Shown: piece by piece, positions 187 to 18,683 of the stretch
Numbering within the stretch: position 1 is the stretch's first letter
How the letters are laid out: every line of letters begins with the position of its first letter
Source: a virus
Taxonomy: Duplodnaviria; Heunggongvirae; Uroviricota; Caudoviricetes
IMG/VR virus record: IMGVR_UViG_2675903436_000002
Coordinates: 1 to 18,683 of that record
Reading direction: 5' to 3' (one strand)
Length of the DNA stretch: 18,683 nt
Program-made: the position numbers and the translations under genes
The notes under the pieces: generated by a model
Databases searched by the model: none
Told to the model about the DNA's origin: nothing
The model's input: the letters and a program-made list of their open reading frames with translations, nothing else

Positions 187-223
187 GATACACCCCCTGT
201 CTGGAAATAAGGGGGCAAGAACA
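1..223 (+). mobile_element. Right end of an IS3-family (IS2-like) insertion sequence; element continues beyond the left window edge
   Basis: Transposase C-terminal ORF (1..186) followed by terminal sequence TGTCTGGAAATAAGGGGGCAA (about 198..218), which resembles the IS2 right-end inverted repeat as I remember it. End coordinate is approximate. Confidence 0.6.
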
Positions 224-227
224 ATGA

Positions 228-971: not shown

Positions 972-1754
972 ATCATCCACCCAATTTAACTGAAACCAGG
1001 ATGAAGTATATGCATATAAAGTTCACTTTGCCAAACTTCAGTATAAAAAACCACATAAAAAATAGGGTGTGATAAAAAATACCGTAAAAATAAAGTAAAG
1101 GATTATAAATTCCGTTACAGTTACAAATGATACTAAAGAAACAATTCCTTAGAAAACCTTATTTACAGCCAATAAGTAAGACACTTATATGATATCAAGT
1201 TTTCATAAAATATAACTAGGCTAAATAGCTGCGCCTAATACCGCTACACTTTTGCCAGCCCATGTTTGCCTCCGGGTATTGACCCCTTCTCTACGCAACT
1301 TCAGTTCCCACCACCAACTTTGCGGCAGCTTTGTAGGATCAATGTCTAAAAGAATAATGGTGACCGATAAGAAAACGACTGAATAACTGCAGATTTTCGC
1401 TCGAAACCTTCCTGTCAGATCCATAGCGAATCAAGTGCTGAATGTCACAGTATCGAACAGAAAACAGTGACGATCTAACCCTTCAAGAATATTCTACGAT
1501 TGTTCTGTTTAGGAAAAGCAAGGCGGGAAGTCGGGAGATAAGTCATTGATAAAGTGGCGGAGAGAGGGGGATTTGCCCCCCCGGTAGAGTTGCCCCTACT
1601 CCGGTTTTCGAGACCGGTCCAATCATCAAACGAAACATAAAATTAGCTCACATTATGAGGAAAAGTATCTTTTTTGTACTATGTAAATTCAAAGGCTTAG
1701 CCTCATTTCTCCGATGGTTTTCTCAACACTACTGGTTGTGAGCCCTTGCAATGA

Positions 1755-2573
<819 letters not shown>

Positions 2574-2593
2574 GTCTTTAAGTGATAAGCATA

Positions 2594-2640
2594 AACCGCA
2601 GCACGTCATGCATACGTCGTGTCTGCGGTTTTTCTTTTTT
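2594..2640 (+). terminator. Rho-independent terminator downstream of the GIY-YIG gene
   Basis: 8-bp stem AACCGCAG / CTGCGGTT (2594..2601 with 2623..2630) around a structured loop, followed by TTTTTCTTTTTT. Confidence 0.6.
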
Positions 2641-2825
2641 GCTTACACGGTGTCTGGTTCTTCTGGCCACTCAATATCCGGTGCAGTTGATGTATCAACA
2701 CGGTTCAGCAACACCCGATACTTTTTCCATGCGGCCAGTAACGCTTTCTCTTCCTCCGTTGCGATTTCCAGCTCAACAACAGTCTGAACGTACCGGGAAC
2801 AGCCTCCTTCAGAGCTTGAAGGATA

Positions 2826-5800
2826 TCAATGTTCGCTTCCTGTTAACTGCCGGACAAGTGCAACCAGTTCGCTTACCTGATTTTCCAGAGTGCTGATCCG
2901 GGTGTCTGCTGTTGCCAGATTTTGACGTAGCGTTGTGTTTTCCTCTTCCAGCGCGGTAACGCGATCATCTGTTTCACGGGCGACCTGAACAAGTAAACCC
3001 GTCACGGCGGCGTAGTCAACATTAAGATAGCGCGTTTCTTCGCGTAGCTCGTTGCCGTCAACGGTCGGGCCTTGCAACTCTTCACCGTAATGAGTAAACG
3101 ATCCCACAGCTTCTGGTATCGCCTCCATTACTTCCTGTGCAATAACGCCAGCATAAGGCATCCCGTTTTCCCTGAGCGTGTAGGTGTATCCGTTCATTTT
3201 ACGGATTGCTTTCGTCGCGTCGCTGATAACGAGAATATCGTCTTTAAGGTCGCGGTCTGATGACTGATTCAGCGTTGTGCAATTAATAGCGCCATTTACA
3301 TCAAACAACTGGCCTGCTGACGTTTTTTGCGCATAAAACAGATACGCAGCAGACGTGCCAACCTCAAAAACGTTTTGTCGAGTACTGGAACCCCACACCC
3401 TGATACCAACTGGTAGTTCTGAATTACCTGAATTAAGTAAAGCAAAACGATTGCCAGTCCCTGTTTGTTTTCTAATTACTAAATCGGCAGTTGAGTTAAC
3501 CTCATCTTTGTTGATGGTTAGCGCCTGTGCTGTAGCACCGTTGACAGTACCGCTTAGTAGTTGCACCGCGCCATCATCGCCATTTAACAGCACTTGAGCG
3601 CTGCTTCTGTGGTTTTTAAGGCACAACATTTTTCCCGTGTTTTTCGATGTACCTACTGACCACGCCGAATTGGTTCCAGTGCTATCAACACCGCGCACAG
3701 CACAATTCATACTACTGTAATCTGACGTACTCCCCAGCACATCAACACGCCCGCCGCCTAATTTTGATGGAGTCGTCGAGGTTAACGACCTGACGGTTAC
3801 ATCCTGATTCCATCCTGAAACAACTACCTGACTCCACTCCGTCCAACTTCCATTGACAACAAAGCGAACGTATATGCGTTTTGTGTCGCTGCCAATCAGC
3901 GTTTGCATGATCGCATAATCTGAACCCGTAGTTTTACGAGTAGATTCTACACGTAGCAAAAAGTTACCGCTTACGCCGTCAGGCTTATTGGTAATATATG
4001 CACCACCTGCGACAGTTTTGCATTGATAGTATTTAACAGATCCAGCCACTGTATTAGCAATGATCAAGTCGTTTAAATCAATAGTCTTGTTGTCAATGGT
4101 TTCCGGCTCGATAGATCCCGCCATACCTGCGTTAAATGTGGCAAGGTCAGAAAAGGTTGTTTTACCGCCTACCGTCACCCCGCTATCGAGTTTTGCTTGT
4201 GTGATTACTTTGCTGTTTTTTGTGTGGTCAGAATAACTACCAAAATACAAATCACCGTCACCAGCTATACCTAGGTATTTTTGATCAACATCATCAACCT
4301 TAAACCCAATGGACAAGTTTTTAATTGTGTTGTTGCTCGTTAAAACCAAAGGCGTATGCTGAGATCCTTTGATGCTTACCGTAGTGTTATCGGAACTGGT
4401 GCTTGTGTTTGCAAATTCTGCGGTGGCTGCGCTGATTTTGTAAGTTATTTTTAGATTGCGGGCCTCAACCCTCCCGTCGTGGCGAACAATAAAATCACCA
4501 CTTGATTCACCTTTTGTGTTTTTCGCCCTGATGTGGATTTCGCCAAGTGATTCGTTGTTTTCAGGCGACCAAACAACGCCGCGCTCGCTTCCGTCGTTGT
4601 TCATGAACCACAGATGAGCGGTTCCTTTTGCTGATTTTAGCCTGATAGATGGCGTTTCTTTCAATATATCAAGATCACCAGACATAACATCGCCGGATTT
4701 TTTCACCTGCGCATCGTTCGTTACGTTGCCAAGTCCAACATCCGATTTCGACGGCTTGTTTGCCGAGCCGTATAGCTCATTGACGCTAAAAGTCCCGTTG
4801 TTAAGCCGGGCATCGTTGCCGGCATAGATCTTAATCTTCGCGGTTGAGTAGTCGATATTGATCGCTGACCACGTATCGCCGCACCGCGAGAATATACCAG
4901 AACCGTGGCTATAAATGGTCGCCGTGCTTCCGGTCGGCTTATCACCGCGCCAGAAATGACCACCTTTGTCACGCAGAGCTTTTAAGATCTCTACATCGCT
5001 CATCTTGCCGTTTGTTGATATCCCGCTACCGCCAAGACCGAAAGCGCCTGTAAGCATAGCATTAGAAAGACCCAAATCTGCTTTAGTCGGCTTGTTTAAC
5101 TGGTCGTAAATCCTTACAACGGGGCTTTCAACATATCCAGAAGGCGCGGCGGTTTGCTTAACAAATCCGTCTGGAATGTATAATTCCGTGCGTGCCGTCT
5201 GCGCCAGTACCGCAACCTTTGCGCCGTTGATAAATGCACGCTGGAAGGCCCAAACCTCAATAAAGCCATCATCTTTAACCAGGCCGTAACGCATTTGCAT
5301 GCTATTGATTAGCCCGGTTGGCCCTAAACGGCGTATACTCAGGTAATTCCGCTCTGCCTGCTCTTTTGCATCCTGCAAATCCTTCTGGCGTTTTTTCTCC
5401 TGAAGCTCGTTAAGACGCTGCTGATCGTACTCAACCTGAGAAGATGATGCCGTCCAGGGGAGTCTTTTCGCCCGCGACACTTTCTCCTGTAAAGCGGAAA
5501 TCTGTTCATCCAGCGAGTCTTCACGACCAATATTCATGGCCGCATCCCAGAAACGACTCCATAAATCAGACAGATACTTCAGCGTACTGCCCAGCGCATT
5601 GAGGTTATTATCAATATCCGCAGTACGCCGACCGGTTTCCTCTGCCAGTGCAGACATGGCTATCCGTGCCGCATCACTGGACCGCCCCTGTTCCCCAAGG
5701 ACGCGTATCTGCTCAAGCTGAGTGGCAGTAAGAAAATGCAGCTCATTGTCCAGAGCCTTCGCGGCATTTACAGGATCATCCTTCAGCCGCTTAAACTGAT

Positions 5801-6134
5801 TTATGGTATCGCTGACCGACTGGCCAACCGATCGCTCCATCTGTGCGGCAGCTCTCGCCACCATACCGATATCGTTTCCACGAAATGCACCACTCCCCAC
5901 CACCTGAGCCAGCGCACCGGCTGCAGCATGTTGCGTGATACCATTCCCGGAAATAGCACGACTGAGCGTCCACAGCTGCCCGGCAGTGACTCCGGCATAA
6001 TGCCCCGTCAGCGACAGCTGGCGGTTAAATTCTTCCCCCTCCTTCTGACCGTCATACCAGGCTTTACCCAGACCATAGACAGCCGCGGCAATACCGCCAA
6101 TAACCCCGCCAAGCATCATGCCTTTCGGTGACAT
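2826..6134 (-). CDS. Chimeric tail protein ORF: tape-measure (lambda H-like) N-terminal segment fused to a tail-fibre body with C-terminal intramolecular chaperone (peptidase S74-like) domain; probably a deletion-derived remnant
   Basis: First about 230 aa (hydrophobic GMMLGGVIGGIAAAVYGLGKAWYDG, then ...LSRA...DAAMNIGRED... coiled-coil) align by eye with lambda H residues about 130-350. The middle is Ser/Thr/Gly/Asn-rich with fibre-like motifs (SDVGLGNVTNDAQVKKSGDVMSGDLDI). The last 144 aa start with SDRDLKDDILVISD..., the autoproteolytic chaperone signature of endosialidase/T5 pb1-type fibres. ORF begins 6 nt after the truncated terminase stop with no RBS of its own; an ATG at 6134 and a TTG at 6137 are both possible starts. 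Confidence 0.6.
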   Translation of the reverse strand: MSPKGMMLGGVIGGIAAAVYGLGKAWYDGQKEGEEFNRQLSLTGHYAGVTAGQLWTLSRAISGNGITQHAAAGALAQVVGSGAFRGNDIGMVARAAAQMERSVGQSVSDTINQFKRLKDDPVNAAKALDNELHFLTATQLEQIRVLGEQGRSSDAARIAMSALAEETGRRTADIDNNLNALGSTLKYLSDLWSRFWDAAMNIGREDSLDEQISALQEKVSRAKRLPWTASSSQVEYDQQRLNELQEKKRQKDLQDAKEQAERNYLSIRRLGPTGLINSMQMRYGLVKDDGFIEVWAFQRAFINGAKVAVLAQTARTELYIPDGFVKQTAAPSGYVESPVVRIYDQLNKPTKADLGLSNAMLTGAFGLGGSGISTNGKMSDVEILKALRDKGGHFWRGDKPTGSTATIYSHGSGIFSRCGDTWSAINIDYSTAKIKIYAGNDARLNNGTFSVNELYGSANKPSKSDVGLGNVTNDAQVKKSGDVMSGDLDILKETPSIRLKSAKGTAHLWFMNNDGSERGVVWSPENNESLGEIHIRAKNTKGESSGDFIVRHDGRVEARNLKITYKISAATAEFANTSTSSDNTTVSIKGSQHTPLVLTSNNTIKNLSIGFKVDDVDQKYLGIAGDGDLYFGSYSDHTKNSKVITQAKLDSGVTVGGKTTFSDLATFNAGMAGSIEPETIDNKTIDLNDLIIANTVAGSVKYYQCKTVAGGAYITNKPDGVSGNFLLRVESTRKTTGSDYAIMQTLIGSDTKRIYVRFVVNGSWTEWSQVVVSGWNQDVTVRSLTSTTPSKLGGGRVDVLGSTSDYSSMNCAVRGVDSTGTNSAWSVGTSKNTGKMLCLKNHRSSAQVLLNGDDGAVQLLSGTVNGATAQALTINKDEVNSTADLVIRKQTGTGNRFALLNSGNSELPVGIRVWGSSTRQNVFEVGTSAAYLFYAQKTSAGQLFDVNGAINCTTLNQSSDRDLKDDILVISDATKAIRKMNGYTYTLRENGMPYAGVIAQEVMEAIPEAVGSFTHYGEELQGPTVDGNELREETRYLNVDYAAVTGLLVQVARETDDRVTALEEENTTLRQNLATADTRISTLENQVSELVALVRQLTGSEH

Positions 6135-6142
6135 CAATGTGT

Positions 6143-6538
6143 CTATCCATCCGGCACGGTTACCGCCGCACTGCTTCTGAACGTTCTGTCGAGGCGCTTT
6201 TTAGAATGCTCGCGGGCCTTATCTTCGGTCATCTGCACAACGAGCATGTCCGAAGGATCGCAAACGATGGTATAGACAATCCATCCATCGATCAGACCAA
6301 TGGTCTTCCCTGTTCGCGCAGGACCAACAAAAATCACCGCATCGTATTCACGCGATGCCAGGCAGTTCATGGGCTCAATGATGTAGGGTGTCAGTTCAGG
6401 ATCCCATGGCACCGAGTTACCAGCCCCCTTGGGAACACGCATGAATTTTTTAACAGCCTCCGAAATCGGCATGCGACGTGGTGGGGAAAATCCTGCCGAT
6501 ATGTCCCTTCCCAAATTTCGGGCTGATGAAAAACCCAT
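6143..6538 (-). pseudogene. Terminase large subunit (GpA family), N-terminal 131-codon fragment
   Basis: Contains a Walker-A-like VGPARTGKT and an N-terminal pattern comparable to lambda gpA (VKSARVGYSK region). Strong SD AGGAGG before the ATG at 6538. ORF stops after 131 codons, where intact GpA-type terminases run about 640 aa. Start is positioned directly after the small-terminase stop. Confidence 0.6.
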
Positions 6539-6546
6539 TATTCCTC

Positions 6547-7074
6547 CTAGAGACTCTCTCCTTCCTCATCAGGAATTAATTCAGCAGCACAAGCCTCGTA
6601 GGATTTTTCCTGAAGAGTGTATCGCAGGTCATCAATGGCCTGCTGTACAACGCCGACGGCCTGAGGAGTCAGGGCGCAATCGCGTTCAAGAACATCCGGA
6701 ATTGTCTCCAGAACCTGGACGACAGCCTTTCTCATGGACGAATAGACGATGACTACTTCATCAACGGGGATGAGTTTTCGCTGCTCCTTTTCCAGCTTGA
6801 TCCTTTCATTTTCAGACTGGTACCAATCCTTTCTCTCTTTCGGCTCCATACGGGATGGATCATGAACAGAGTCTGCTGCCTCATGCTTCACACTAAACAG
6901 GGCAGACCCGACATGCTGCAGGGCGTAAACGGGGTTCCCCCTGACAGTCGCTGCCACAGGAGTGTTGGCCGCGAGGAGCCGTTTTTTTACTGTGTCCCGG
7001 TGAAGCCCAAAGGCCTCGGCGATTTTAAAAACACTCCAGTAATAAGCATCACCGATCCCGCTCACATTTGACAT
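6547..7074 (-). CDS. Terminase small subunit (Nu1/NohD-like DNA packaging protein)
   Basis: N-terminal HTH-like segment (WSVFKIAEAFGLHRDTVKKRL); sits immediately upstream of the large-terminase fragment and about 180 bp downstream of a cos-like site. GGAG SD before the ATG at 7074; the ORF track starts 4 codons earlier at 7086. Confidence 0.7.
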   Translation of the reverse strand: MSNVSGIGDAYYWSVFKIAEAFGLHRDTVKKRLLAANTPVAATVRGNPVYALQHVGSALFSVKHEAADSVHDPSRMEPKERKDWYQSENERIKLEKEQRKLIPVDEVVIVYSSMRKAVVQVLETIPDVLERDCALTPQAVGVVQQAIDDLRYTLQEKSYEACAAELIPDEEGESL

Positions 7075-7249
7075 AAGCAACTCCATCTGGCAGGTGAAAA
7101 TCAGGTTTATTTATATATTTCAATTAATTGCAAACTGGTCTAATGACAGGGAGAAAAAAATATTGTACAGGTAAAAAGAGAAATAACTTTTAATTATCAA
7201 TAAATTACCTAACATGCTGCCGCCGCCATGGAAATGCAAAAACTAGCCT

Positions 7250-7275
7250 TTTTCCGCGACGCTCCCGCCCCGTGG
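7250..7275 (-). other. cos-like site (cosN homolog) of the prophage
   Basis: Minus-strand sequence ACGGGGCGGGAGCGTCGCGG resembles lambda cosN (ACGGGGCGGCGACCTCGCGG, from memory), at the expected distance upstream of the small terminase gene. Confidence 0.45.
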
Positions 7276-7826
7276 CAGGCCCCCCCACCGGGAGGACCCG
7301 TCAGCCTGACAGCCATGACGAACGTCTGATACAGCCCTTGCATGAATGGCATCGGGATAATCCAGAAAGGAATAGCATCGACCCACAAAAATCTGTGTGA
7401 GTGTCCTGTTTCTTCCCCCCCCCCGCACAGGACTGGCGAGCATGAGGGACAACCCCGCGAACCATAACCGCGCTGATGACAGGACTGGCCCGGCTTGTAT
7501 TGCTTCCAGCCTTCGCTTTTGTGGCTTTTGCAATAGCCTGACGGATCTGTGGTGGTATTGCGGTAGCCGCGAACACGGCAGGTTTTTGGGGTTCGTGGGG
7601 GCATATGTACTCCAATGAAGAAGCCACCAACATAGCCTCCTCCATTCATCGTGAAACTATTTTCATCTACCCAGTAATGAATTCTTTGAAGAGTTGTGAT
7701 CAATACAACTCGCTAATGGAGAGGCTTGTCTCACACGTGAGACAAGCTTCCTGTTTGATTTACTGGACAGTATAGGAGGACAGAATGCCTTCCTCACTCG
7801 AATAACATCAATTAAGGAGGTTCAAC

Positions 7827-7949
7827 ATGTTTCATTCCACAAGTCATCAGGCTGTAATTATGGCAGCATCAGTTTGTGCCAAAGACCTTTTCCGCTTCAC
7901 TTTGAGCCTGATTCATTTCTACCTGACCGGCTCGCCTCTATCTTTTTAA
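7827..7949 (+). CDS. Small hypothetical ORF (40 aa) upstream of bor
   Basis: ATG preceded by a near-consensus SD AAGGAGG at 7 nt spacing; product MFHSTSHQAVIMAASVCAKDLFRFTLSLIHFYLTGSPLSF. Not in the ORF track because it is under 60 aa. No homolog recognised. Confidence 0.2.
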   Translation: MFHSTSHQAVIMAASVCAKDLFRFTLSLIHFYLTGSPLSF

Positions 7950-8129
7950 TCCCCGCTTTATCCAAATTGCATTGCCATAATGCCGACAACACACTGACAT
8001 TCAAATCCAGACTACCTCCAATAGTCTGACCGTACACCTATATAGTTTTAATTTTCATCAATCCATTTAACTATCGTTTAATTGTTGTCACATAGGATTC
8101 TGCTGTTTTTAACAATACAGGATAATAAG

Positions 8130-8423
8130 ATGAAAAAAATGTTGTTTTCTGCCGCTCTGGCAATGCTTATTACAGGATGTGCTCAACAGACGTTTACTGT
8201 TGGAAACAAACCGACAGCAGTAACACCAAAGGAAACCATCACCCATCATTTCTTCGTTTCGGGAATTGGACAGGAGAAAACTGTTGATGCAGCCAAAATT
8301 TGTGGCGGCGCAGAAAATGTTGTTAAAACAGAAACCCAGCAAACATTCGTAAATGGATTGCTCGGTTTTATTACTTTAGGCATTTATACTCCGCTGGAAG
8401 CGCGTGTGTATTGCTCACAATAA
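8130..8423 (+). CDS. bor: Bor lipoprotein (serum-resistance, Bor/Iss family)
   Basis: MKKMLFSAALAMLITGCAQQTFTV... with lipobox LITGC; near-identical to lambda Bor as I remember it. Convergent with Rz as in lambda. The ORF track start at 8082 is an upstream in-frame alternative. Confidence 0.9.
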   Translation: MKKMLFSAALAMLITGCAQQTFTVGNKPTAVTPKETITHHFFVSGIGQEKTVDAAKICGGAENVVKTETQQTFVNGLLGFITLGIYTPLEARVYCSQ

Positions 8424-8454
8424 TTGCATGAGTTGCCCATCGATATGGGCAGCT

Positions 8455-8916
8455 CTATCTGCACTGCTCATTAATATACTTCTGGGTTCCTTCCAGTTGT
8501 TTTTGCATAGTGATCAGCCTCTCTCTGAGGGTGAAATAATCCCGTTCAGCGGTGTCTGCCAGTCGGGGGGAGGCTGCATTATCCACGCCGGAGGCGGTGG
8601 TGGCTTCACGCACTGACTGACAGACTGCTTTGATGTGCAACCGACGACGACCAGCGGCAACATCATCACGCAGAGCATCATTTTCAGCTTTCGCATCAGC
8701 TAACTCCTTCGTGTATTTTGCATCGAGCGCAGCAACATCACGCTGACGCATCTGCATGTCAGTAATTGCCGCGTTCGCCAGCTTCAGTTCTTTGGCATTT
8801 TTGTCGCGCTGGGCTTTATAGGTAATGGCGTTATCACGGTAATGATTAACAGCCCATGACAGGCAGACGATGATGCAGATAACCAGAGCGGAGATAATCG
8901 CGGTTACTCTGTTCAT
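8455..8916 (-). CDS. rzpD: Rz i-spanin (inner-membrane spanin subunit)
   Basis: [21 protein letters not shown]... N-terminal TM followed by a charged coiled-coil; matches DLP12 RzpD / phage 21 Rz from memory. ATG at 8916 overlaps the endolysin stop (ATGA). Confidence 0.85.
8514..8696 (-). CDS. rzoD: Rz1 o-spanin lipoprotein, embedded in the +1 frame of Rz
   Basis: [23 protein letters not shown]... with lipobox VVGC and a proline-rich stretch ([13 protein letters not shown]), entirely inside Rz in a different frame. Confidence 0.75.
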
Positions 8917-9410
8917 TGCTGACCCCACAAACAGATTTCACGCTCAATCTCACGACGAGTCATGAGACCTTTCCATTGCTTACCGCCAGCATATGTCCAG
9001 CGACGTAACTGATCACATGCGCCTTTGATATCGCCCTGGTTTATTTTGCGAAGAAGCGTCGATGTTCTGAAATTGCCAGCACCCACGTTGTAAACGAATG
9101 AGTAAAGAGCGCCGCGCGTTGTTTCCGGTATATCGACTTCGATGTATGGGTTAATTTGTCTGGCGACAGTGGCAAGGTCTTTATTCAAGAGTGCTTTGCA
9201 TTCTGCTTTGGTATACGTTTTACCGAGCATGATGTCTTTTCCTGTATGCCCGTGACATACGGTCCATACACCAACAATATCTTTGTATGGTATGTAGCTG
9301 ACACCTTCCAGACCATCGTTACCACTTGGGCCAGTGATTAACACTGATGCTATAGCAATTGCTCCGCCACCAATAGCAGCAGCAACTGCTTTTCGTAATG
9401 ATGGAGGCAT
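8913..9410 (-). CDS. rrrD: SAR endolysin (T4-lysozyme-like muramidase with signal-anchor-release N-terminus)
   Basis: N-terminal Gly/Ala-rich weakly hydrophobic SAR segment ([20 protein letters not shown]) followed by a lysozyme-like domain; matches DLP12 RrrD / phage 21 R from memory. Start overlaps the holin stop. Confidence 0.9.
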
Positions 9411-9625
9411 TATTCACCTCTCGCAGCCTTGCGCTTATCTTCTTTAATCTTGAAATAAAGGTTTGTCAGGTACGTCAGCAAGCCAAATACCAGACTACCC
9501 AGCACACCTATTGCCGCCCACTGTGAGGGCGTGACTTTATCGAGCAGCTGTAAAAACCAGTAACCGGCACTACCTGCTGAGGTGCCATAGGCGACACCCG
9601 TTGTTAACTTATCCATGGATTTCAT
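9410..9625 (-). CDS. essD: Class II holin (phage 21 S / EssD-like) with dual-start motif
   Basis: [26 protein letters not shown]... with two TM segments; Met1-Lys-Ser-Met4 dual start typical of holin/antiholin pairs; SD GAGGTGG upstream of the ATG at 9625. The ORF track start at 9670 is 15 codons further upstream. Confidence 0.85.
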
Positions 9626-10214
9626 AACCCCACCTCGCAGACAAAGCGGGTGTAAATTGAGGGAATACAACGTATCGCAAAAAAGCAGAAACGTAACAGA
9701 CTCGGAGTCAGTGAATAACTCAGGTATTGAGTTATCAGCTAATATCGAGACTCAAAAAATGGAAAAACCAGCTCGACGGCGGGTTTAAGCTGTGTGACGA
9801 AGTAACCACTCTTAACAGCATAACCAATTTTTTACGTACGTAAACCACTGAATGATATTTATGAGAATGCTACCGAGTGTTCAAAACACCACCACAAATA
9901 CATAAGAAAACCTCAACAAATAACTAACAAATAATTTCCAGTGTTATTTTTAGCCGATTTAAATTGAATCTTCAAATTATAGAGCACTTATAAATAACAG
10001 CCGTTAATATAAATTGGCTAATAGATTTATTTTTATTCAGCCAAGAGCTATGAATAGGATTCGATAGAAAAAAGTTCAGATAAAAATAGAGATCTACTTC
10101 ACAAATCAAACGAGAAACCAAAACTTACATCTTGAAATAATCACATTGATTAGATGAATATTTATCGCGCAGTGACATCATTTTTTAATAATAGTTCAAA
10201 AAAAAGGGCTCACG

Positions 10215-11312
10215 ATGAAAAAATTAACAGTGGCAATTTCTGCTGTAGCTGCATCAGTACTGATGGCGATGTCTGCTCAGGCAGCTGAAATTTATAATAA
10301 AGACAGTAACAAGCTGGATCTGTACGGGAAAGTTAATGCTAAGCACTACTTCTCCTCTAATGATGCAGATGATGGTGATACTACTTATGCCCGTCTTGGC
10401 TTCAAAGGTGAAACCCAAATCAACGATCAACTGACTGGTTTCGGTCAGTGGGAATATGAATTCAAAGGCAACCGCGCTGAATCTCAAGGTTCCTCCAAAG
10501 ATAAAACCCGTCTTGCCTTCGCTGGCCTGAAATTCGGTGACTACGGCTCCATCGATTACGGCCGTAACTACGGTGTAGCATACGACATCGGTGCGTGGAC
10601 TGACGTCCTGCCAGAATTCGGTGGTGACACTTGGACTCAAACCGACGTGTTCATGACTCAACGTGCAACTGGTGTTGCAACCTATCGTAACAACGACTTC
10701 TTTGGTCTGGTTGATGGTCTGAACTTTGCTGCTCAGTACCAAGGCAAAAACGATCGTAGCGATTTCGATAACTACACTGAAGGTAACGGTGATGGCTTCG
10801 GTTTCTCTGCTACCTATGAATACGAAGGATTCGGTATCGGTGCAACTTATGCGAAATCTGATCGTACCGACACTCAAGTTAATGCAGGGAAAGTTCTTCC
10901 TGAAGTATTTGCTTCCGGTAAAAATGCAGAAGTTTGGGCCGCAGGTCTGAAATATGACGCTAACAACATTTACCTGGCCACTACCTATTCTGAAACCCAG
11001 AATATGACTGTATTTGCTGATCACTTCGTTGCTAATAAAGCCCAAAACTTCGAAGCTGTTGCACAATATCAGTTCGATTTCGGTCTGCGTCCGTCCGTTG
11101 CTTACCTGCAATCTAAAGGTAAGGATCTTGGAGTATGGGGCGATCAGGACTTAGTCAAATATGTTGATGTAGGTGCAACCTATTACTTCAACAAAAATAT
11201 GTCTACTTTCGTTGATTACAAAATCAACCTGCTTGACAAAAATGACTTCACTAAAGCACTCGGTGTAAGCACTGATGACATCGTTGCTGTAGGTCTGGTT
11301 TACCAGTTCTAA
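10215..11312 (+). CDS. nmpC: Prophage-encoded OmpC-family general porin (NmpC/Lc/OmpD-like), apparently intact
   Basis: 365 aa with signal peptide [23 protein letters not shown], porin motifs and a C-terminal ...VGLVYQF ending in Phe. Located between Q and the holin on the opposite strand, as nmpC is in DLP12 and lc in PA-2. Confidence 0.9.
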
Positions 11313-11478
11313 TCTGATTACGAAAAAGATATGTTGCGGGAGGCGTTGCCTCCCCAACATATAAGTGGCTCCCTCAAGCCACTTCCTTTAGAAGCACAAC
11401 CTTGCTTCTAACTATATAAACCTTCTGTTATATATTACCCTTTATTTTTGGGGGCGTCTCAACGCCCCATTTTTAATA
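11312..11478 (+). ncRNA. Possible IpeX-like small RNA / porin 3' UTR hairpin cluster ending in a rho-independent terminator
   Basis: Four consecutive hairpins: 11338..11354 (GGGAGGC/GCCTCCC), 11363..11384 (AAGTGGCT/AGCCACTT), 11389..11410 (TAGAAGCA/TGCTTCTA) and 11450..11468 (GGGGGCG/CGCCCC) followed by ATTTTTAATAATTTTT. In DLP12 the sRNA IpeX maps to the nmpC 3' end (from memory); boundaries here are guesses. Confidence 0.3.
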
Positions 11479-11501
11479 ATTTTTAGTAAACAATTGGCAT
11501 A

Positions 11502-11885
11502 TTAATTAGAGTTATTAACAACGATATCCATCTCTAACCGGATATCTAATGCCATTAACATCCCTTCAATTATGCCCTCAGCCTTCTGTAACCTTTTCCC
11601 GATATAACCATCAGAGCAGCAATGCTTACCTGCCAGTGACATGAATGTCATACCGACTACATAATAATCTACTAATAAATCGTGCAAATCGCTGTTGTTC
11701 TTTTTCAGACGGGCCATGCACCCGCAAATAATCATCGCGTCATCGTCACAACATTGCGGGCGAGATTTTACTTTTGAAGTAATTAATCCCTTAAAACCGG
11801 CGGCAATGGACGACCAGGTCACATCTTCATGATTATTAGCCGCCCACGCTCCCCAACGCTCAAGAACCATCTGAATATCACGCAT
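11502..11885 (-). CDS. quuD: Late-gene antiterminator Q (phage 82 / QuuD-like)
   Basis: [24 protein letters not shown]...[16 protein letters not shown]... matches DLP12 QuuD from memory. ATG at 11885 has a GGAG SD; the ORF track start at 11900 is a TTG. Confidence 0.85.
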
Positions 11886-11970
11886 CAACTTACTCCACAA
11901 AAATCAGACCAGAACGCCAATTACAAGCAAAAATCAACAAAACAGTATTAGTTGATTGTTATCTCTGACT

Positions 11971-12111
11971 TCATACTCCTGCTCCTGTCAGGGTTTTGGC
12001 GTAATTCTTCAGTATTCGGTAATCGGTCAAAACAGAACCGGGGAAACGATATAAGCGCAGATGCCCCCAGCGGTGGCGAAGAAGTTCTGCCATATAAAAC
12101 TCAAACATCAT
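11971..12111 (-). CDS. ylcG: Small nin-region protein, YlcG-like (46 aa)
   Basis: [46 protein letters not shown]; start overlaps the rusA stop. Not in the ORF track (under 60 aa); derived by manual reverse-complement translation. Confidence 0.5.
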
Positions 12112-12470
12112 TCATTCCCAATTTCGGTGATGGTCAGTTCCAGCCTCCCACCTTTGGTAACAGGCATCTTCACAACGCGGTAATCAACGACCTGAGCATC
12201 ATCCAGCCAGAAACCTGCTTTAGTGAGTGCGTCAAAAGCGGCTTTTTGCAGATTATCCAGGTCACGGCGACGGCGATCCGGCATGTGGCACTCAATGCGG
12301 ATTTTCACAGGCATAGCCAAGCCGATATCCAGCATTGCGTTTTTAATGATTCGGGCGACGTTATCGCGGTATGCCTGCCCCTCTGCGCTGACGTGCGTGC
12401 GCCCGCGATTATGGCGGTAATAGCGATTATTGCTCGGAGGCCAGGGTAATGTGATGCTGTAGGTATTCAC
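12108..12470 (-). CDS. rusA: RusA Holliday-junction resolvase
   Basis: 120 aa [36 protein letters not shown]..., essentially the RusA sequence as remembered; start overlaps the upstream gene's stop (ATGA). Confidence 0.9.
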
Positions 12471-12757
12471 GCCTTAATAACCCCCTCTTTCAGCCAGATA
12501 ACCTGTGTTCTCGCCATACCTTCCAGCGCGCATTCTTTTGCATATGCAGCATCGACAAAATGTGTGCGGCGGTCGATTTCGTCGTGGCAGGCAGAACATG
12601 CAATGGTGGCAATCAGGTCTGGCGGTTTGGTACCGGTGCCGCACAATCCAGTCAGCCGGATATGTGCCAGTACAGACGTTTCAGGGTTGCCATTACATAC
12701 GCCAGGGATTCTTACCTGGCATTCCCGACTACGCGCTGCTTTTCTCAAATCAGCCAT
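12467..12757 (-). CDS. ybcO: DUF1364-family nin-region protein (YbcO-like, putative nuclease)
   Basis: [47 protein letters not shown]...[11 protein letters not shown] with Cys/His-rich motif. ATG at 12757 has an AGGAGG SD and overlaps the ninE-like ORF end. Confidence 0.75.
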
Positions 12758-12920
12758 GATTCCTCCTTGCTGCCAGTCGCAACCATTTTTTATCAACCAG
12801 GCTGGCGGTATATCCGAGCAGTGTTGGTATTTCGGAAGGCTTCAGCTCCGGTTTACGCTTACGACGATTTGGTACTCTGTAGATGTGTCCGTTCATGACA
12901 CGAATAAGCGGTGTAGCCAT
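12750..12920 (-). CDS. ninE: NinE-like small protein (56 aa)
   Basis: Manual translation [56 protein letters not shown]; basic KRKP...W..WLR pattern like lambda NinE; start overlaps the ninB-like stop (ATGA). Not in the ORF track. Confidence 0.5.
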   Translation of the reverse strand: MATPLIRVMNGHIYRVPNRRKRKPELKPSEIPTLLGYTASLVDKKWLRLAARRNHG

Positions 12921-13375
12921 TACGCCTCCTGCTTGTCACGGAGCAGCTGGAACTCGCAGCTCTGCGGAATAGTCAGGTGGCAGCCAATATTCATCGCCCA
13001 GGCTTCAACCTTACACAGGAAGACATACATCTCTCCGGTATCAAGATCGGAGGTATGGCGTAACGACTGGATCGTAGTGATTTCGCCGGTTACGACATCA
13101 ACCAGGTCCTTGGTTTCATAACCGAGGTATGTGTGTTTGAGAGCATCTTTTACCCATGCTGCAGTAGCGAACGATTTCCCCCTGCTGATGAGGTACTCAC
13201 TGATTTCGCTGTACCACATGTGGCTGAGTGCATTCTGGGAAAGACTGCGTCTTTCGCGCCACGGTTTAAGCGCCATGCGAAAGCATTTGCCGTCCTCCAG
13301 ATAAGGCTGGATCTGCTGACCGATAGCGGTGAAGTTACCGCGATGCAATTTGATACCGTCTTGTGGGAGGTTCAC
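12920..13375 (-). CDS. ybcN: NinB-family recombination protein (YbcN-like)
   Basis: 151 aa; ...[22 protein letters not shown]... parallels the NinB RSLDQNRKLW motif. GTG start at 13375 with GGAGGTG SD. Confidence 0.8.
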
Positions 13376-13539
13376 GCTTCACCTCCGCAGAGGTCAAACG
13401 TTGGATGCAAAAAAACGCAGGTGCATTTCTGCATCTGTGAAGGGAGAAGAGAGTTTGGATTGTATATGCGCATAAACGTCCCCGTTTAGCGCAGAAGTCA
13501 CCGGAGTTGTTCAGGCTCCGATGACATGATTATGGCGGG

Positions 13540-13908
13540 TTGATTATGGAAAATCAATCAAGCTATGTTTCATCGGCGAGGTCATCATCTGTGACAATCA
13601 TGAGGTTAAAGAATGAAATAATGTTTATCTATGACAAGGATGAAGCTGAGCGCATTGTCGAAAATACCGCATACACTGCAGAACGTCAGCCGGAACGCGA
13701 CATCACTCCGGTTAACGATGAAACCATGCAGGAGATTAACACTCTGCTGATTGCCCTGGATAAAACATGGGATGACGACTTATTGCCGCTCTGTTCCCAG
13801 ATATTTCGCCGCGACATTCGCGCATCGTCAGAACTGACACAGGCCGAAGCAGTGAAAGCTCTTGGATTCCTGAAACAGAAAGCCACTGAGCAGAAGGTGG
13901 CAGCATGA
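13540..13908 (+). pseudogene. bet: 5'-truncated bet (Red-beta) remnant; only the C-terminal about 95 codons are Bet-derived
   Basis: From about 13627 the translation IYDKDEAERIVENTAYTAERQPERDITPVNDETMQEINTLLIALDKTWDDDLLPLCSQIFRRDIRASSELTQAEAVKALGFLKQK..EQKVAA matches the lambda Bet C-terminus; the upstream 29 codons of the ORF are unrelated sequence. Confidence 0.7.
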
Positions 13909-14585
13909 CACCGGACATTATACTGCAGCGTACCGGGATCGACGTGAGAGCTGTCGAACAGGGGGATGATGCATGGCACAAATTACGGCTCGGCGTCATC
14001 ACCGCTTCAGAAGTTCACAACGTGATAGCAAAGCCCCGATCAGGAAAGAAGTGGCCTGACATGAAAATGTCCTACTTCCACACCCTGCTGGCTGAGGTTT
14101 GCACCGGTGTGGCTCCGGAAGTTAACGCTAAAGCGCTGGCCTGGGGAAAACAGTACGAGAACGACGCCAGAACCCTGTTTGAGTTCACTTCCGGCGTAAA
14201 TGTTATTGAATCCCCGATCATCTATCGCGACGAAAGTATGCGCACCGCCTGCTCTCCCGATGGTTTATGCAGTGACGGCAATGGCCTTGAGCTGAAATGC
14301 CCGTTTACCTCCCGGGATTTCATGAAGTTCCGGCTCGGTGGTTTCGAGGCCATAAAGTCGGCTTACATGGCCCAGGTGCAGTACAGCATGTGGGTGACGC
14401 GAAAAGATGCCTGGTACTTTGCCAACTATGACCCGCGCATGAAGCGTGAAGGCCTGCATTATGTCGTGGTTGAGCGGGATGAAAAGTACATGGCGAATTT
14501 TGACGAGATGGTGCCGGAGTTCATCGAAAAAATGGACGAGGCACTGGCTGAAATTGGTTTTGTATTTGGGGAGCAATGGCGATGA
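13905..14585 (+). CDS. exo: Lambda-type exonuclease (Red-alpha)
   Basis: 226 aa [40 protein letters not shown]..., near-identical to lambda Exo as remembered; start overlaps the bet stop (ATGA). Confidence 0.9.
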
Positions 14586-14764
14586 AGCATCCTCGCGATA
14601 ATATCCGGGTAGGCGCGATCACTTTCGTCTACTCCATTACAAAGCGAGGCTGGGTATTTCCCGGCCTTTCTGTTATCAGAAATCCACTGAAAGCACAGCG
14701 GCTGGCTGAGAAGATAAATAATAAACGGGAGGCGGTATGCACAAAGCATCTCCTGTTGAGTTAA
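14576..14764 (+). CDS. Hypothetical early-region protein (62 aa)
   Basis: ORF overlapping the exo stop; an alternative ATG at 14582 forms an ATGA overlap with exo. No family recognised. Confidence 0.35.
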
Positions 14765-14928
14765 GAACGAGTATTGAGATGGCACATAGCCTTGCTCAAA
14801 TTGGAGTCAGGTTTGTGCCAATACCAGTAGAAACAGACGAAGAATTTCATACGTTAGCCACATCCCTTTCACAAAAGCTGGAAATGATGGTGGCGAAAGC
14901 AGAAGCAGATGAGAGAGACCAGGTATGA
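14737..14928 (+). CDS. Hypothetical early-region protein (63 aa)
   Basis: ATG preceded by a GGGAGG SD; acidic small protein, no family recognised. Confidence 0.45.
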   Translation: MHKASPVELRTSIEMAHSLAQIGVRFVPIPVETDEEFHTLATSLSQKLEMMVAKAEADERDQV

Positions 14929-15008
14929 CAACCACTGAATGCATTTTTCTGGCAGCGGGCTTCATATTCTGTGTGCTTATGCTTGCCGGCATGGGGCTTG
15001 TTCAGTGA
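14925..15008 (+). CDS. Putative small hydrophobic membrane peptide (27 aa)
   Basis: MTTTECIFLAAGFIFCVLMLAGMGLVQ; ATG overlaps the upstream stop (ATGA) and its stop overlaps a downstream GTG (GTGA), suggesting translational coupling. Not in the ORF track. Confidence 0.3.
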   Translation: MTTTECIFLAAGFIFCVLMLAGMGLVQ

Positions 15009-15220
15009 CACCTCAGCAAGAAAACGCCCTTCGCAGCATTGCCCGTCAGGCTAATTCTGAAATCAAAAAAGCCAGACAGCAGTTTCCGGATAAAAACGTC
15101 GATGACATTTGCCGTAGCGTACTAAAGAAGCACCGCGAAACGGTAACGCTGATGGGATTCACACCGACTCATTTAAGCCTGGCGATCGGCATGTTGAACG
15201 GCGTCTTTAAGGAACGATGA
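15005..15220 (+). CDS. Hypothetical early-region protein (frame of track ORF 14939..15220)
   Basis: GTG at 15005 overlaps the small-peptide stop; the ORF track starts the same frame at the ATG at 14939. Start uncertain, no family recognised. Confidence 0.35.
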   Translation: MTPQQENALRSIARQANSEIKKARQQFPDKNVDDICRSVLKKHRETVTLMGFTPTHLSLAIGMLNGVFKER

Positions 15221-15241
15221 ACATGAAAAGCAAAATCATCA

Positions 15242-15263
15242 GGGAGCTACAGGCTCCTTTTTT
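15242..15263 (+). terminator. Rho-independent terminator
   Basis: Stem GGAGC / GCTCC with a 5-nt loop followed by TTTTTT. Confidence 0.5.
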
Positions 15264-15318
15264 ATTATTCGCATTTACCCTCAAGCGTATTAACCAACAA
15301 TTCAGGGATTAATGAAAG

Positions 15319-15537
15319 ATGGCAGACATCATTGATTCAGCATCAGAAATCGAAGAATTACAGCGCAATACAGCAATAAAAATGCGTCGTCTGAACTACC
15401 AGACTGTATCCGCAACTCATTGTTGTGAGTGTGGCGATCCGATAGATGAGCGAAGACGCCTGGCTGTTCAGGGTTGTCGGACTTGTGCAAGTTGCCAGGA
15501 GGAGATCGAACTTAAGAACAAACAATGGGGACTGTGA
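15319..15537 (+). CDS. TraR/DksA-family C4 zinc-finger protein
   Basis: CCECGDPIDERRR...GCRTCASCQEE four-cysteine motif in a 72-aa protein, typical of phage TraR-like proteins encoded near xis. Confidence 0.65.
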   Translation: MADIIDSASEIEELQRNTAIKMRRLNYQTVSATHCCECGDPIDERRRLAVQGCRTCASCQEEIELKNKQWGL

Positions 15538-15863
15538 TGGCCTCAAAGCAGCAAATTTCAACATCGTCCAACTGGGGTGTAAAAATGTTCAGAATCATTT
15601 TTCCTAACACCTGGTACGTCGACCACCACGGCACTCCCTGCAAAATCCTGCGTTCTACCCACAACAAAGTTCACTACATCCGAAAAGGCAGAACATGTAT
15701 CGCCAGCATGTTCCGCTTTAATCATGACTTTGAACCTGTGAATAAAGCTGATGCAGATCGGATAGCAGAAGAGATCGAAACGGCAGAACACATTAAGAAG
15801 TTACGTGACATGCGTTCAAAAAGCAGAGGTAACCATGGAATCATACAGCCTCACACTCGATGA
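15537..15863 (+). CDS. Hypothetical protein (108 aa)
   Basis: ATG overlaps the TraR-like stop, with a GGGGA SD-like sequence upstream; no family recognised. Confidence 0.4.
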   Translation: MASKQQISTSSNWGVKMFRIIFPNTWYVDHHGTPCKILRSTHNKVHYIRKGRTCIASMFRFNHDFEPVNKADADRIAEEIETAEHIKKLRDMRSKSRGNHGIIQPHTR

Positions 15864-16185
15864 GGCCTGTCAGTTTCTTAAGATATCCAGACCAACCGCC
15901 ACCAACTGGATACGAACAGGCCGCCTACAGGCAACACGTAAAGATCCAACCAAGCCAAAATCTCCTTACCTCACAACACGGCAAGCCTGCATTGCGGCGC
16001 TTCAGTCTCCGCTGCATACTGTCCAGGTGAGCGCGGGTGATGGCATAACAGAGGAAAGAAAATGTCACTCTTCCGCAGAAGTGAAATATGGTACGCCAGT
16101 TTCACATTGCCGAACGGTAAAAGATTTAAACAGTCTCTTGGAACAAAGGACAAAAGGCAGGCGACAGAGCTCCATGACAAGCTAA
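15835..16185 (+). CDS. xis: Excisionase (Xis, P22-type, winged-helix)
   Basis: [31 protein letters not shown]... HTH typical of Xis/AlpA-like excisionases; 116 aa; AGAGG SD; 3' end overlaps the int start. Confidence 0.7.
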
Positions 16186-17225
16186 AGGCTGAAGCATGGC
16201 GGGTCAGCAAACTTGGTGAAATACCTGATATAACGTTCGAGGAAGCGTGTGTCAGGTGGCTTGAAGAGAAAGCACATAAAAAATCACTGGACGATGACAA
16301 AAGCCGGATCGGATTCTGGCTTCAACATTTCGCAGGAATGCAACTAAGAGACATTACTGAATCAAAAATTTATTCAGCAATGCAGAAAATGACGAACCGG
16401 CGTCATGAGGAAAACTGGAAACTCAGGGCAGAAGCATGCAGAAAAAAAGGGAAACCTGTTCCAGAATACACGCCAAAACCAGCGTCCGTTGCAACGAAGG
16501 CTACGCATCTTTCATTTATAAAGGCCCTACTAAGAGCCGCAGAGCGTGAATGGAAAATGCTGGATAAGGCACCAATTATTAAAGTGCCCCAACCAAAGAA
16601 TAAACGGATCCGCTGGCTGGAGCCCCATGAAGCACAAAGACTGATTGATGAATGTCCGGAGCCATTAAAGTCTGTTGTTGAATTTGCACTGGCAACAGGC
16701 CTAAGACGCTCGAACATCATCAACCTTGAATGGCAACAAATAGATATGCAGCGCCGGGTGGCATGGATAAACCCGGAAGAGAGTAAATCAAACCGCGCAA
16801 TTGGCGTTGCGCTGAATGATACTGCATGTCGCGTACTGAAAAAACAAATCGGGAATCATCACCGTTGGGTATTTGTGTACAAGGAAAGCTGTACCAAACC
16901 AGACGGAACGAAAGCGCCAGCAGTAAGGAAGATGCGGTATGACGCAAACACAGCCTGGAAAGCGGCGCTGAGACGGGCTGGTATTGATGATTTCAGATTT
17001 CACGACTTGAGACACACCTGGGCAAGTTGGCTGGTTCAAGCCGGAGTCCCGTTGTCAGTGTTACAGGAAATGGGAGGCTGGGAGTCTATCGAAATGGTTC
17101 GTCGATATGCTCACCTTGCACCTAATCACCTTACCGAACACGCACGGCAAATAGACTCGATCCTGAACCCATCGGTCCCAAATTTGTCCCAGTCAAAAAA
17201 TAAGGAAGGTACTAATGATGTGTAA
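16062..17225 (+). CDS. int: Tyrosine integrase, P22-type (thrW-specific)
   Basis: 387 aa [41 protein letters not shown]... with C-terminal [39 protein letters not shown] catalytic region; very close to P22 Int as remembered; ends 14 nt from the tRNA 3' end. Confidence 0.92.
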
Positions 17226-17239
17226 CTTATTGATTTAAA

Positions 17240-17315
17240 TGGTGCCGATAATAGGAGTCGAACCTACGACCTTCGCATTACGAATGCGCTGCTCTACCAA
17301 CTGAGCTATATCGGC
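17240..17315 (-). tRNA. thrW: tRNA-Thr (anticodon CGU), thrW-like; prophage attachment site at its 3' end
   Basis: Reverse complement GCCGATATAGCTCAGTTGGTAGAGCAGCGCATTCGTAATGCGAAGGTCGTAGGTTCGACTCCTATTATCGGCACCA folds as a canonical 76-nt tRNA with anticodon CGT and encoded CCA. Confidence 0.95.
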
Positions 17316-17429
17316 CCTGAAAGGACATGTTCACGAACGTGAATCACGGTGGGCAAGGTTAAAACTAACCGGGCGATGCGTCAATGGCCTTGTGAATCAA
17401 ATGGCTACTTTTGCATCACCCGGTTTTAT

Positions 17430-18683
17430 TTACGCACGAATGGTGTAATCACCAATGCCGATCCACTTGTAAGTGGTCAGTGCTTCCAGCCCCATTGGGC
17501 CACGCGCGTGGAGTTTTTGTGTGCTTACCGCCACTTCCGCACCCAGACCAAACTGGCCGCCGTCGGTAAAACGCGTAGAGGCGTTAACGTAAACAGCGGA
17601 CGAATCCACTTCGTTAACAAAACGCTGGGCGTTGCGCATATCGCGGGTCAGGATCGCATCGGAGTGTTGTGTGCCGTGTTCACGAATATGGGCGATGGCA
17701 TCGTCAAGATCGCTGACGATTTTGACGTTCAAATCTAATGACAGAAACTCATCGTCATACTCTTCGGCTTTAACAGCAACCACCTTCGCAGGGCCTGCCT
17801 GCAACTGCGCCAGTGCAGCTGCATCTGCGTGTAATGTCACGCCGCTTTCCGCCATTTGTTTGCTTAATGCGGGCAGGAAGCTATCGGCGATGTTTTTATT
17901 CACCAGCAACGTTTCAACCGTATTACATGTGCTCGGACGCTGAGTTTTCGCGTTGACGATCACTTTTAATGCTTCAGCGATCTCTACACTTTCATCAACG
18001 TAAATATGGCATACGCCTATACCACCTGTGATCACCGGGATTGTCGACTGTTCACGGCACAGTTTATGCAAACCAGCGCCACCACGCGGGATCAGCATGT
18101 CGATGTATTTATCCATACGCAGCATTTCACTGACCAGCGCACGGTCAGGATTATCAATCGCCTGCACGGCACCCGCCGGTAAGCCGCAGGATTTCAGGGC
18201 GTCCTGAATCACCGCCACCGTTGCAGCGTTAGTGCGACACGTTTCTTTGCCACCGCGCAGGATCACCGCATTACCGGTTTTCAGGCACAGCGAAGCGACA
18301 TCAACCGTCACGTTCGGGCGCGCTTCATAAATCACGCCAATAACCCCCAGCGGTACGCGACGACGCTCAAGACGCAGGCCGCTGTCCAGTACGCCGCCAT
18401 CGATTACCTGCCCCACCGGATCGGCGAGGTTGCACACCTGACGTACATCGTCGGCAATGCCTTTCAGCCGTGCGGGCGTCAGTGCCAGACGGTCAAGCAT
18501 CGCTTCGCTAAGGCCATTGGCTCGCGCGTCAGCAACATCCTGGGCGTTAGCGTTGAGGATGATTTCGCTTTGTGCTTCCAGTTCATCGGCGATTTTTTCC
18601 AGCACGCGATTTTTTTCGCGGCTGGAGAGTTGCGCTAATTTATACGAGGCTTGCTTCGCGGCAATGCCCATTTGTTCCAGCAT
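17430..18683 (-). CDS. proA: Gamma-glutamyl phosphate reductase (ProA)
   Basis: 417 aa starting [38 protein letters not shown]..., an aldehyde-dehydrogenase-fold protein matching E. coli ProA; start codon is the last three bases of the window. Confidence 0.95.

Follow-up and report, generated by a model that had tools for sequence, protein, structure and literature searches.

A 27-codon reading frame between orf63 and orf61 of lambdoid phages as a candidate membrane-protein gene

What is encoded by a 27-codon open reading frame (ORF) that lies, with overlapping codons at both ends, between two small early genes of a lambdoid phage: a membrane peptide with a function of its own, a toxin, a relay for ribosomes on their way to the next gene, or nothing at all? 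The question is raised by 18,683 nucleotides (nt) of Caudoviricetes DNA (IMG/VR record IMGVR_UViG_2675903436_000002, positions 1 to 18,683), referred to in what follows as the window. A first-pass annotation, made from the letters alone, had drawn attention to four small ORFs at 14576-15220. All four are present (62/60, 63, 27 and 71 amino acids (aa)) and, as that annotation had proposed, they are tightly coupled and belong to the early leftward operon of lambdoid phages. The third is called sORF27 here and lies between orf63 and orf61. From the sequence comparisons described below we consider it reasonably probable that sORF27 is a genuine protein-coding gene, that it forms one mosaic module with the 71-aa orf61, and that its product is an inner-membrane peptide with its own function.

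Conservation was examined in 354 related loci collected from IMG/VR, metagenomes and phage records. The search anchor was placed inside orf61, so that the sample is unbiased by the small ORF itself; a first Orf61 alignment, built from word-indexed hits, was dropped because it contained mostly frameshifted copies. In 325 of the 330 loci that carry it, sORF27 is exactly 27 codons long, the exceptions being four copies in which Q27 has become a stop codon and one that has lost its stop. Synonymous (S) and non-synonymous (N) changes were then counted over positions 14929-15004, each distinct allele being taken once, with an expected synonymous fraction of 0.26. The sORF27 frame gives S14/N15 for distinct alleles (p=0.009, rate ratio omega about 0.38) and S11/N5 for alleles seen at least twice (p=0.0005, omega about 0.16), while omega is at least 1.1 in the two other sense frames of the same region. 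Among comparison genes, orf61 gives omega values of 0.14-0.37 (p<1e-3) and orf63 a value of about 0.8. The peptide sequence of sORF27 therefore appears to be under purifying selection, which makes a function of its own probable.

The peptide of the window is MTTTECIFLAAGFIFCVLMLAGMGLVQ and the population consensus is MTTTECIFLAAGFIFCVLMLADMGLVQ. Its first-pass description as essentially one hydrophobic helix was borne out: the grand average of hydropathy (GRAVY) of sORF27 is 1.6-1.7, with a value of 1.73 for the peptide so described, which places it in the top 0.6% of 27-mers from all six frames of the window. The best 19-mer of the window allele has a Kyte-Doolittle (KD) value of 2.49 (top 0.1-0.3% of the background), and the hydrophobic stretch C6-V26 of this allele is unbroken and long enough to span a bilayer. 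The window carries a rare substitution (D22G, 3 of 272 loci), the common allele having D22 near the C-terminal end of the stretch. There are no basic residues. By chance, 27 codons that are both open and equally hydrophobic turn up in 0.1-0.7% of shuffled sequences or background windows, a figure on which the requirements of phase and overlap have not yet been imposed.

The way in which the locus is assembled also marks sORF27 as a unit. At its upstream end it shares ATGA (14925-14928) with the stop codon of orf63, and at its downstream end its stop shares GTGA (15005-15008) with the start of orf61. The first-pass annotation had described overlapping stop and start codons of this kind throughout the string; this holds for these two junctions, whereas the overlap between the 62/60-aa ORF (orf60a) and orf63 is 28 nt rather than 4. 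A Dam-type methyltransferase gene takes the place of orf63 upstream in 37 of 327 loci. There, homology to the window begins exactly at the sORF27 ATG (junction sequence GGGAGGCTGCATGA), the Dam stop codon overlaps this ATG as ATGA, and a strong GGGAGG lies 4 nt upstream. Whether behind orf63 or behind the Dam methylase, sORF27 travels together with orf61, always with the ATGA overlap. Since the homology boundary falls exactly at the sORF27 ATG, recombination seems to handle sORF27 and orf61 together, the start of the small ORF being a gene boundary. The predicted Shine-Dalgarno (SD) strengths are -5.6 kcal/mol (orf63 context) and -10.3 kcal/mol (Dam context) for sORF27, and -3.9 to -4.7 kcal/mol for orf61.

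In existing records sORF27 has left few traces. An exact-match lookup finds it as a 'hypothetical protein' (UniProt A0A0A2SGE8, about 1000 contigs and some E. coli genomes), and it is annotated in none of the phage records inspected. A contig scan returned mostly lambda DNA contaminating unrelated assemblies. It was not mentioned in the literature searched, full-text searches by peptide sequence and by the name 'orf2312' gave nothing useful, and the peptide is absent from the supplements of the Sakai small-gene ribosome-profiling study. A tblastn comparison of the peptide with phages yielded only copies at least 92.6% identical and no distant homologs. PHROGs holds no family for it; against Pfam and NCBIfam at E<=0.1 no toxin family (Hok_Gef, Ldr, TisB, Ibs, ShoB, Fst and others) was matched, the sole match being a chance one to MtrF (E=0.047). 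Three longer entries were set aside: members of 428 and 471 aa in the 90% clusters of the peptide are unrelated clustering artefacts, and a 32-aa variant is the product of an insertion sequence (IS) insertion. Taken together, the sequence data make the sORF27 product a credible candidate for a small single-pass membrane protein, uncharacterised and overlooked by lambda annotation and literature.

How such a gene might work can be sketched. In an intact phage the block would be transcribed from pL, and ribosomes ending orf63 (or dam) would reinitiate at the overlapping AUG of sORF27. The 27-residue product, a single hydrophobic helix without basic residues, would most likely insert in the inner membrane, and termination of sORF27 at the UGA overlapping (A/G)UG would help initiation at the weak orf61 start. 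Our best guess is that the peptide has a share in an effect attributed until now to 'orf61', the pro-lytic tuning of the choice between lysis and lysogeny and of induction.

A number of observations weigh against this reading. Conservation of the small ORF across homologous loci, which the first-pass annotation had named as a test, gives a mixed picture: it is very high in E. coli lambda and Shiga-toxin (Stx) phages, but no such ORF was found alongside the divergent Orf61 and Orf63 homologs examined in other genera. Within E. coli, a common Orf61 allele (P0010) follows a 250-aa gene without the small ORF, and Escherichia sp. E1V33 has lost sORF27 through a 14-nt deletion just after ATGACAA (locus L086, 1435-1716). 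Being missing beside P0010 and the divergent homologs and lost in E1V33, sORF27 is a lineage-restricted and dispensable addition, seen only in E. coli phages that are close kin. Between 16 and 29 events underlie the S/N test, the conservation evidence comes wholly from sequences more than 92% identical, and the signal is partly mimicked (omega 0.31-0.58) by an antisense ORF whose third codon positions coincide with those of sORF27. The peptide is without basic flanking residues to set its topology. The part of the Donaldson paper that summarises lambda ribosome profiling lists only 7-aa and 31-aa extra peptides in the block (PMC8614690). Finally, the published mutant phenotypes discussed next are modest, were obtained in a multicopy plasmid assay, and may include polar effects on downstream genes.

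The published genetics of 'orf61' bears directly on sORF27. Bloch et al. (2014) constructed a lambda 'orf61 frameshift' by deleting a C at the mark in the primer CTTCATATTCTGTGTG*TTATGCTTGCCGACAT (PMC4195576). This C (position 30957 of lambda, 14976 of the window) opens codon 18 of sORF27, and the ATG of true Orf61 follows 29 nt further downstream. Its deletion replaces the C-terminal half of the sORF27 helix and abolishes the stop/start overlap. With the mutant plasmid, phage development was delayed after induction by mitomycin C or H2O2 (PMC4195576). In the 'orf61' deletions of lambda and Phi24B, too, sORF27 is wholly or largely gone; the lambda deletion has minor effects and the Phi24B deletion stronger ones. 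As Orf61 is already broken in lambda (see below), this pattern suggests that Orf61 carries most of the phenotype and that sORF27, or coupling through sORF27, carries a smaller part. In addition, infection with wild-type Phi24B gives about 8-fold higher induction of degP and about 5-fold higher induction of htpX than infection with an exo-xis deletion (PMC10789677), which fits a membrane-active product in the region and is not specific to sORF27.

It is conceivable, if rather unlikely, that sORF27 is itself the real effector behind the lambda 'orf61' phenotypes, an early pL-made inner-membrane peptide that pushes the lysis-lysogeny or induction decision to lysis. Possible targets would be FtsH/HflKC (CII and CIII stability) or an envelope-stress sensor, and action on such a sensor would account for the induction of degP and htpX by the exo-xis region. 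In that case a regulator of development that acts at the membrane would have escaped recognition in the best-studied of all phages, and annotated lambda orf61 would be a non-gene.

The same features can also be read otherwise, and we give a limited chance to the idea that sORF27 is a relay only, translated solely to deliver ribosomes to the weak orf61 start, with a peptide that is functionless and degraded. The exact 4-nt overlaps at both ends are consistent with this, as are the weak orf61 SD, the GTG start of orf61 in 33 of 272 loci (the window included; most relatives have ATG), the constant association of sORF27 with its orf61 allele and the absence of sORF27 homologs beyond a narrow clade. 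A relay would tolerate any sequence and any length, yet the near-invariant 27 codons and omega values of 0.16-0.4 indicate that neither is free to change. Nor is the extreme hydrophobicity needed for coupling, and Orf61 homologs elsewhere, like the P0010 variant, do without a relay ORF.

The first-pass annotation had likened the peptide to small membrane toxins, and had placed it in a region of anti-defence genes. On such a reading the peptide would depolarise or permeabilise the inner membrane in the manner of type I toxins or holin-like peptides; in size and hydrophobicity it resembles the Ibs, TisB and DinQ-class peptides. Envelope and heat-shock stress genes are indeed raised when the exo-xis region is expressed (PMC10789677). 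We nevertheless judge a toxin improbable, since the peptide matches no toxin family, has no similarity to Kil and is without the charged or amphipathic features of pore-forming toxins. It has neither a promoter of its own nor an antisense partner, and is embedded in the operon by its 4-nt overlaps: a search of both strands near 14850-15050 gave no promoter-like site, the one antisense site of this kind lies at 15293-15264, and there is no Rfam match. The locus is present in 3205 of 5426 complete E. coli genomes (59%), at no more than five copies per genome and about 4,300 copies in all, with no sign of counter-selection, and deletion phenotypes are only mild (PMC6213356). PADLOC returned no match. 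The toxin, Kil-like and anti-defence framing of sORF27 is not supported.

A quite improbable alternative is that sORF27 is spurious and that the real product is a 93-aa Orf61 read from ATG 14939, the form given in the Phi24B annotation (vb_24B_7c) and used in the literature. To weigh it, the true form of Orf61 must be considered. In alignment with lambda, the A6 run of the window at 15065-15070 is matched by A7; A6 is found in 305 of 327 related loci and A7 in 22, the lambda reference and its near relatives. The extra A of lambda splits the 71-aa ORF, and annotated lambda orf61 (30839-31024) consists of an upstream out-of-frame stretch followed by the N-terminal 22 codons of the true gene, after which it is again out of frame. 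Judged from this alignment, annotated lambda orf61 is a frameshift artefact, a chimera of the two. A passage of the Donaldson paper states that lambda Orf61 "appears truncated", and reports that it models as unstructured (PMC8614690).

The 93-aa start is chosen by many gene callers, and most members of phrog_303 have about 93-101 aa. The frame of the extension, by contrast, has an omega of 1.2-3.4 and no usable SD (-3.8 kcal/mol, misplaced, 14 nt away). In orf61 itself 14 of 16 variable sites fall at codon position 3. A search of 1.84 billion representative proteins gave a small Orf61 family of 60 matches, whose truly divergent members all have 69-78 aa and align from residue 1. In Klebsiella, Yersinia, Vibrio and Erwinia phages the first residue of the homolog falls opposite Met1 of the 71-aa form, and divergent homologs often have an ATGA overlap of their own (for example, in Klebsiella, with a methylase gene). 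The 71-aa form alone is predicted to fold confidently (AlphaFold2 (AF2) predicted local distance difference test (pLDDT) 89; helices 3-26, 32-49 and 54-64), and the model in the relevant part of the Donaldson paper needed only residues 24-93. E1V33 does have an SD-preceded ATG in frame with Orf61, giving 93 aa; this is accounted for by its 14-nt deletion, which brings the Orf61 frame into register with the sORF27 initiation site (SD GGAGG; ATGA shared with a 355-aa gene that has a DGQHR motif) and so produces a natural 93-aa fusion. The 71-aa form is the conserved unit of the Orf61 family.

Two names have been attached to this 71-aa protein. The Prokaryotic Genome Annotation Pipeline (PGAP) calls it 'cell division protein ZapA' in RefSeq records such as NC_011357 and NC_000902. 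The similarity to ZapA is weak, local and limited to residues 3-35; the Pfam score is 16.1 bits against a cut-off of 23.8, there is no NCBIfam match, and ZapA is not among the fold matches. In all likelihood the label is an over-annotation now being propagated among E. coli genomes. For the homeodomain proposed by Donaldson in 2021, three helices are indeed predicted; the best homeodomain match is Pitx2 (2L7F; probability 0.12, template modelling score (TM) 0.34), with all hits at E>1. A Foldseek comparison of the Orf61 model with the PDB gave no fold match at E<1, so that neither the PGAP name nor the homeodomain proposal finds support in a search based on a predicted model.

That the conservation is due instead to an antisense gene (a 61-aa ORF on the minus strand, 14807-14992) or to a structured RNA is highly improbable: the antisense ORF is intact in 268 of 273 sequences and shares in the constraint where it overlaps sORF27, but three events are synonymous in sense and non-synonymous in antisense with none the other way round, the antisense ORF is unconstrained beyond the overlap (omega 0.74-0.85, p about 0.4), the C-terminal two-thirds of the ORF are replaced in the Dam-context mosaics, no promoter-like site precedes it, and an RNA element has no Rfam match and folds more weakly than shuffles on both strands.

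The surroundings of sORF27 are well known (Table 1). The matches to DUF1317, DUF1382 (and PDB 8DSB), phrog_303 and a TraR-type zinc finger, together with 95-99% nucleotide identity and conserved gene order of the window segment in 187 phage records including lambda, 434 and many Stx phages, identify the region as the conserved lambdoid exo-xis block: orf60a, orf63, sORF27, orf61, a 31-codon ORF and orf73. Profile searches of the 62-, 63- and 71-aa products, which the first-pass annotation had recommended, thus found DUF1317, DUF1382 and phrog_303. Downstream of the block, Pfam matches identify xis (HTH_17) and an integrase (Phage_integrase). The orf60a ATG at 14582 overlaps the exo stop as ATGA, and an alternative ATG at 14576 would give 62 aa.

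Table 1. Features of the exo-xis block (window positions unless lambda is named)
Feature	Position	Strand	Evidence or remark
exo (lambda exonuclease, 226 aa)	13905..14585	+	Pfam YqaJ E=2e-29; named exo in lambda, 434 and other records; upstream anchor
orf60a homolog (60 aa, DUF1317)	14582..14764	+	Pfam PF07026 E=1.7e-36, full length; phrog_1998; SD -7.7 kcal/mol
t1, strong terminator-like hairpin with 9-pair stem, inside orf60a coding sequence	14646..14668	+	
orf63 homolog (63 aa, DUF1382)	14737..14928	+	Pfam PF07131 E=8e-31; PDB 8DSB E=7e-33; strong GGGAGG SD -10.3
sORF27, 27 codons, predicted single hydrophobic helix	14925..15008 (lambda 30925-31008)	+	Intactness, frame-specific synonymous excess, mosaic junction, hydropathy
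N-terminal extension of 93-aa 'Orf61' (22 codons)	14939..15004	+	Most likely non-coding
Orf61, 71-aa form, GTG start	15005..15220	+	phrog_303 E=5e-36; three predicted helices
A6 run inside orf61 (A7 in lambda)	15065..15070 (lambda about 30862-30868)	+	
31-codon ORF MNMKSKIIRELQAPFLLFAFTLKRINQQFRD, containing t2	15217..15312	+	ATGA overlap with orf61 stop
t2, intrinsic-terminator-like hairpin and T-run	15241..15269 (hairpin and T-run, 15241-15259)	+	Found in window; listed by Bloch 2014 (PMC4195576 Table 4)
orf73 homolog (TraR/DksA-type C4 zinc finger, 72 aa)	15319..15537	+	Pfam zf-dskA_traR E=3e-9; TIGR02419; phrog_54

The exo-xis region has been studied by the Wegrzyn and Donaldson groups, with orf60a, orf63, orf61, orf73 and ea22 as its genes. 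Deletions of these have modest pro-lytic or pro-lysogenic phenotypes (PMC6213356, PMC5575149, PMC8614690), and PDB 8DSB is the nuclear magnetic resonance (NMR) structure of lambda Orf63. The first-pass remark that genes of this region are often uncharacterised is therefore not apt for the other three ORFs of the string, which are lambda orf60a, orf63 and orf61 and have published pro-lytic regulatory phenotypes: these genes have already been studied, if not their mechanisms, and sORF27 is the new element of the block. The published lambda gene list contains no 27-aa gene. What it calls 'orf61' is either the 61-aa frameshifted ORF of lambda or the 93-aa ORF of Phi24B, and both versions span sORF27.

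The block contains two terminator-like hairpins. The sequence of t1 is identical to the t1 entry in Table 4 of Bloch et al. (PMC4195576), and pKD46 is described as bearing the 'native terminator tL3 after exo'; we infer that t1 is probably lambda tL3. The terminator placed at about 15250 by the first-pass annotation corresponds to t2, which is present, and lies inside a fifth coupled ORF of 31 codons that had been missed. The level of lambda mRNA falls downstream of t2 (PMC4195576). The 31-codon ORF is intact in about 270 of 272 loci, with a start that varies between ATG and GTG, and its synonymous excess in the S/N test was not significant. From its length and position it is probably the 31-aa 'orf2313' of lambda ribosome profiling, a 31-aa peptide being mentioned in PMC8614690.

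Two further observations concern the same stretch. Although its structure has been solved, orf63 has a near-absent signal of purifying selection (omega about 0.7-0.8), with variable sites spread evenly across the three codon positions (window 14765-14924). The RNA of 14900-15030 is unusually unstructured: on each strand, 197 of 200 dinucleotide-shuffled controls fold more stably (z = +2.1 and +1.7).

The copy in the window belongs to a defective prophage. Of Bet, the last ~95 residues are left (13540-13908), and the other strand carries a NinB-like gene (12920-13375). The window has lost the whole stretch from the nin region to bet, namely P, O, cII, cro, cI, N, cIII, kil, gam and pL. Transcription from pL with N antitermination is thus a feature of intact relatives and not of this copy, which, with its ORF string intact and its native promoter lost, may be silent. 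The prophage is inserted at a tRNA-Thr(CGT) gene (17240-17315) immediately after a P22-type integrase gene, which marks the junction with the host. Beside the tRNA gene lies a gene of the aldehyde-dehydrogenase family (417 aa, 17430-18683), probably proA. Elsewhere in the window, a single ORF of 1103 aa (2826-6137, minus strand) has a tape-measure domain (TMP_2) at its N-terminus and an endosialidase-chaperone domain (Peptidase_S74) at its C-terminus, as if tail genes had been fused by a deletion; this would be another sign that the prophage is decaying.

Lambda is the reference phage, and the block that it shares with Stx phages affects prophage induction and hence the release of Shiga toxin. 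If sORF27 is a gene, the lambda annotation is wrong at orf61, where a frameshifted gene has been joined to a non-coding frame and a gene of 27 codons is concealed. The genetic data on orf61 would then need to be read again, both the lambda and Phi24B deletions and, above all, the 1-bp frameshift that lies in sORF27 upstream of true Orf61. Constructs used for structural work on 'Orf61' or for its overexpression would probably have had a non-native N-terminus, which may explain its reported insolubility. With a locus found in 59% of complete E. coli genomes, the peptide would rank with the commoner of the small E. coli prophage proteins that have yet to be studied.

Known systems offer several points of comparison. 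Like lambda Kil, sORF27 would encode a small product of the pL operon. The Kil likeness proposed in the first-pass annotation goes no further: lambda Kil is a charged, non-membrane protein of 47 aa encoded between gam and cIII, whereas sORF27 lies between orf63 and orf61, and a BLASTP comparison of the two gave no alignment at E<=100. With the type I toxins (Hok/Gef, Ldr, TisB, IbsC, ShoB and DinQ) it has in common its length and hydrophobicity, and it differs from them in having no family match, promoter of its own, 5' untranslated region (UTR), antisense RNA or charged tail, and in its proposed translational coupling within a polycistronic operon. Small single-pass membrane proteins include KdpF (29 aa), AcrZ, MgtS, CydX and PmrR. 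Although it has no sequence relationship to these, is encoded by a phage and is limited to one mosaic module, sORF27 resembles them in being shorter than 50 aa, in its single predicted hydrophobic helix and in its position inside an operon with tight or overlapping junctions and, like KdpF, it is free of basic residues.

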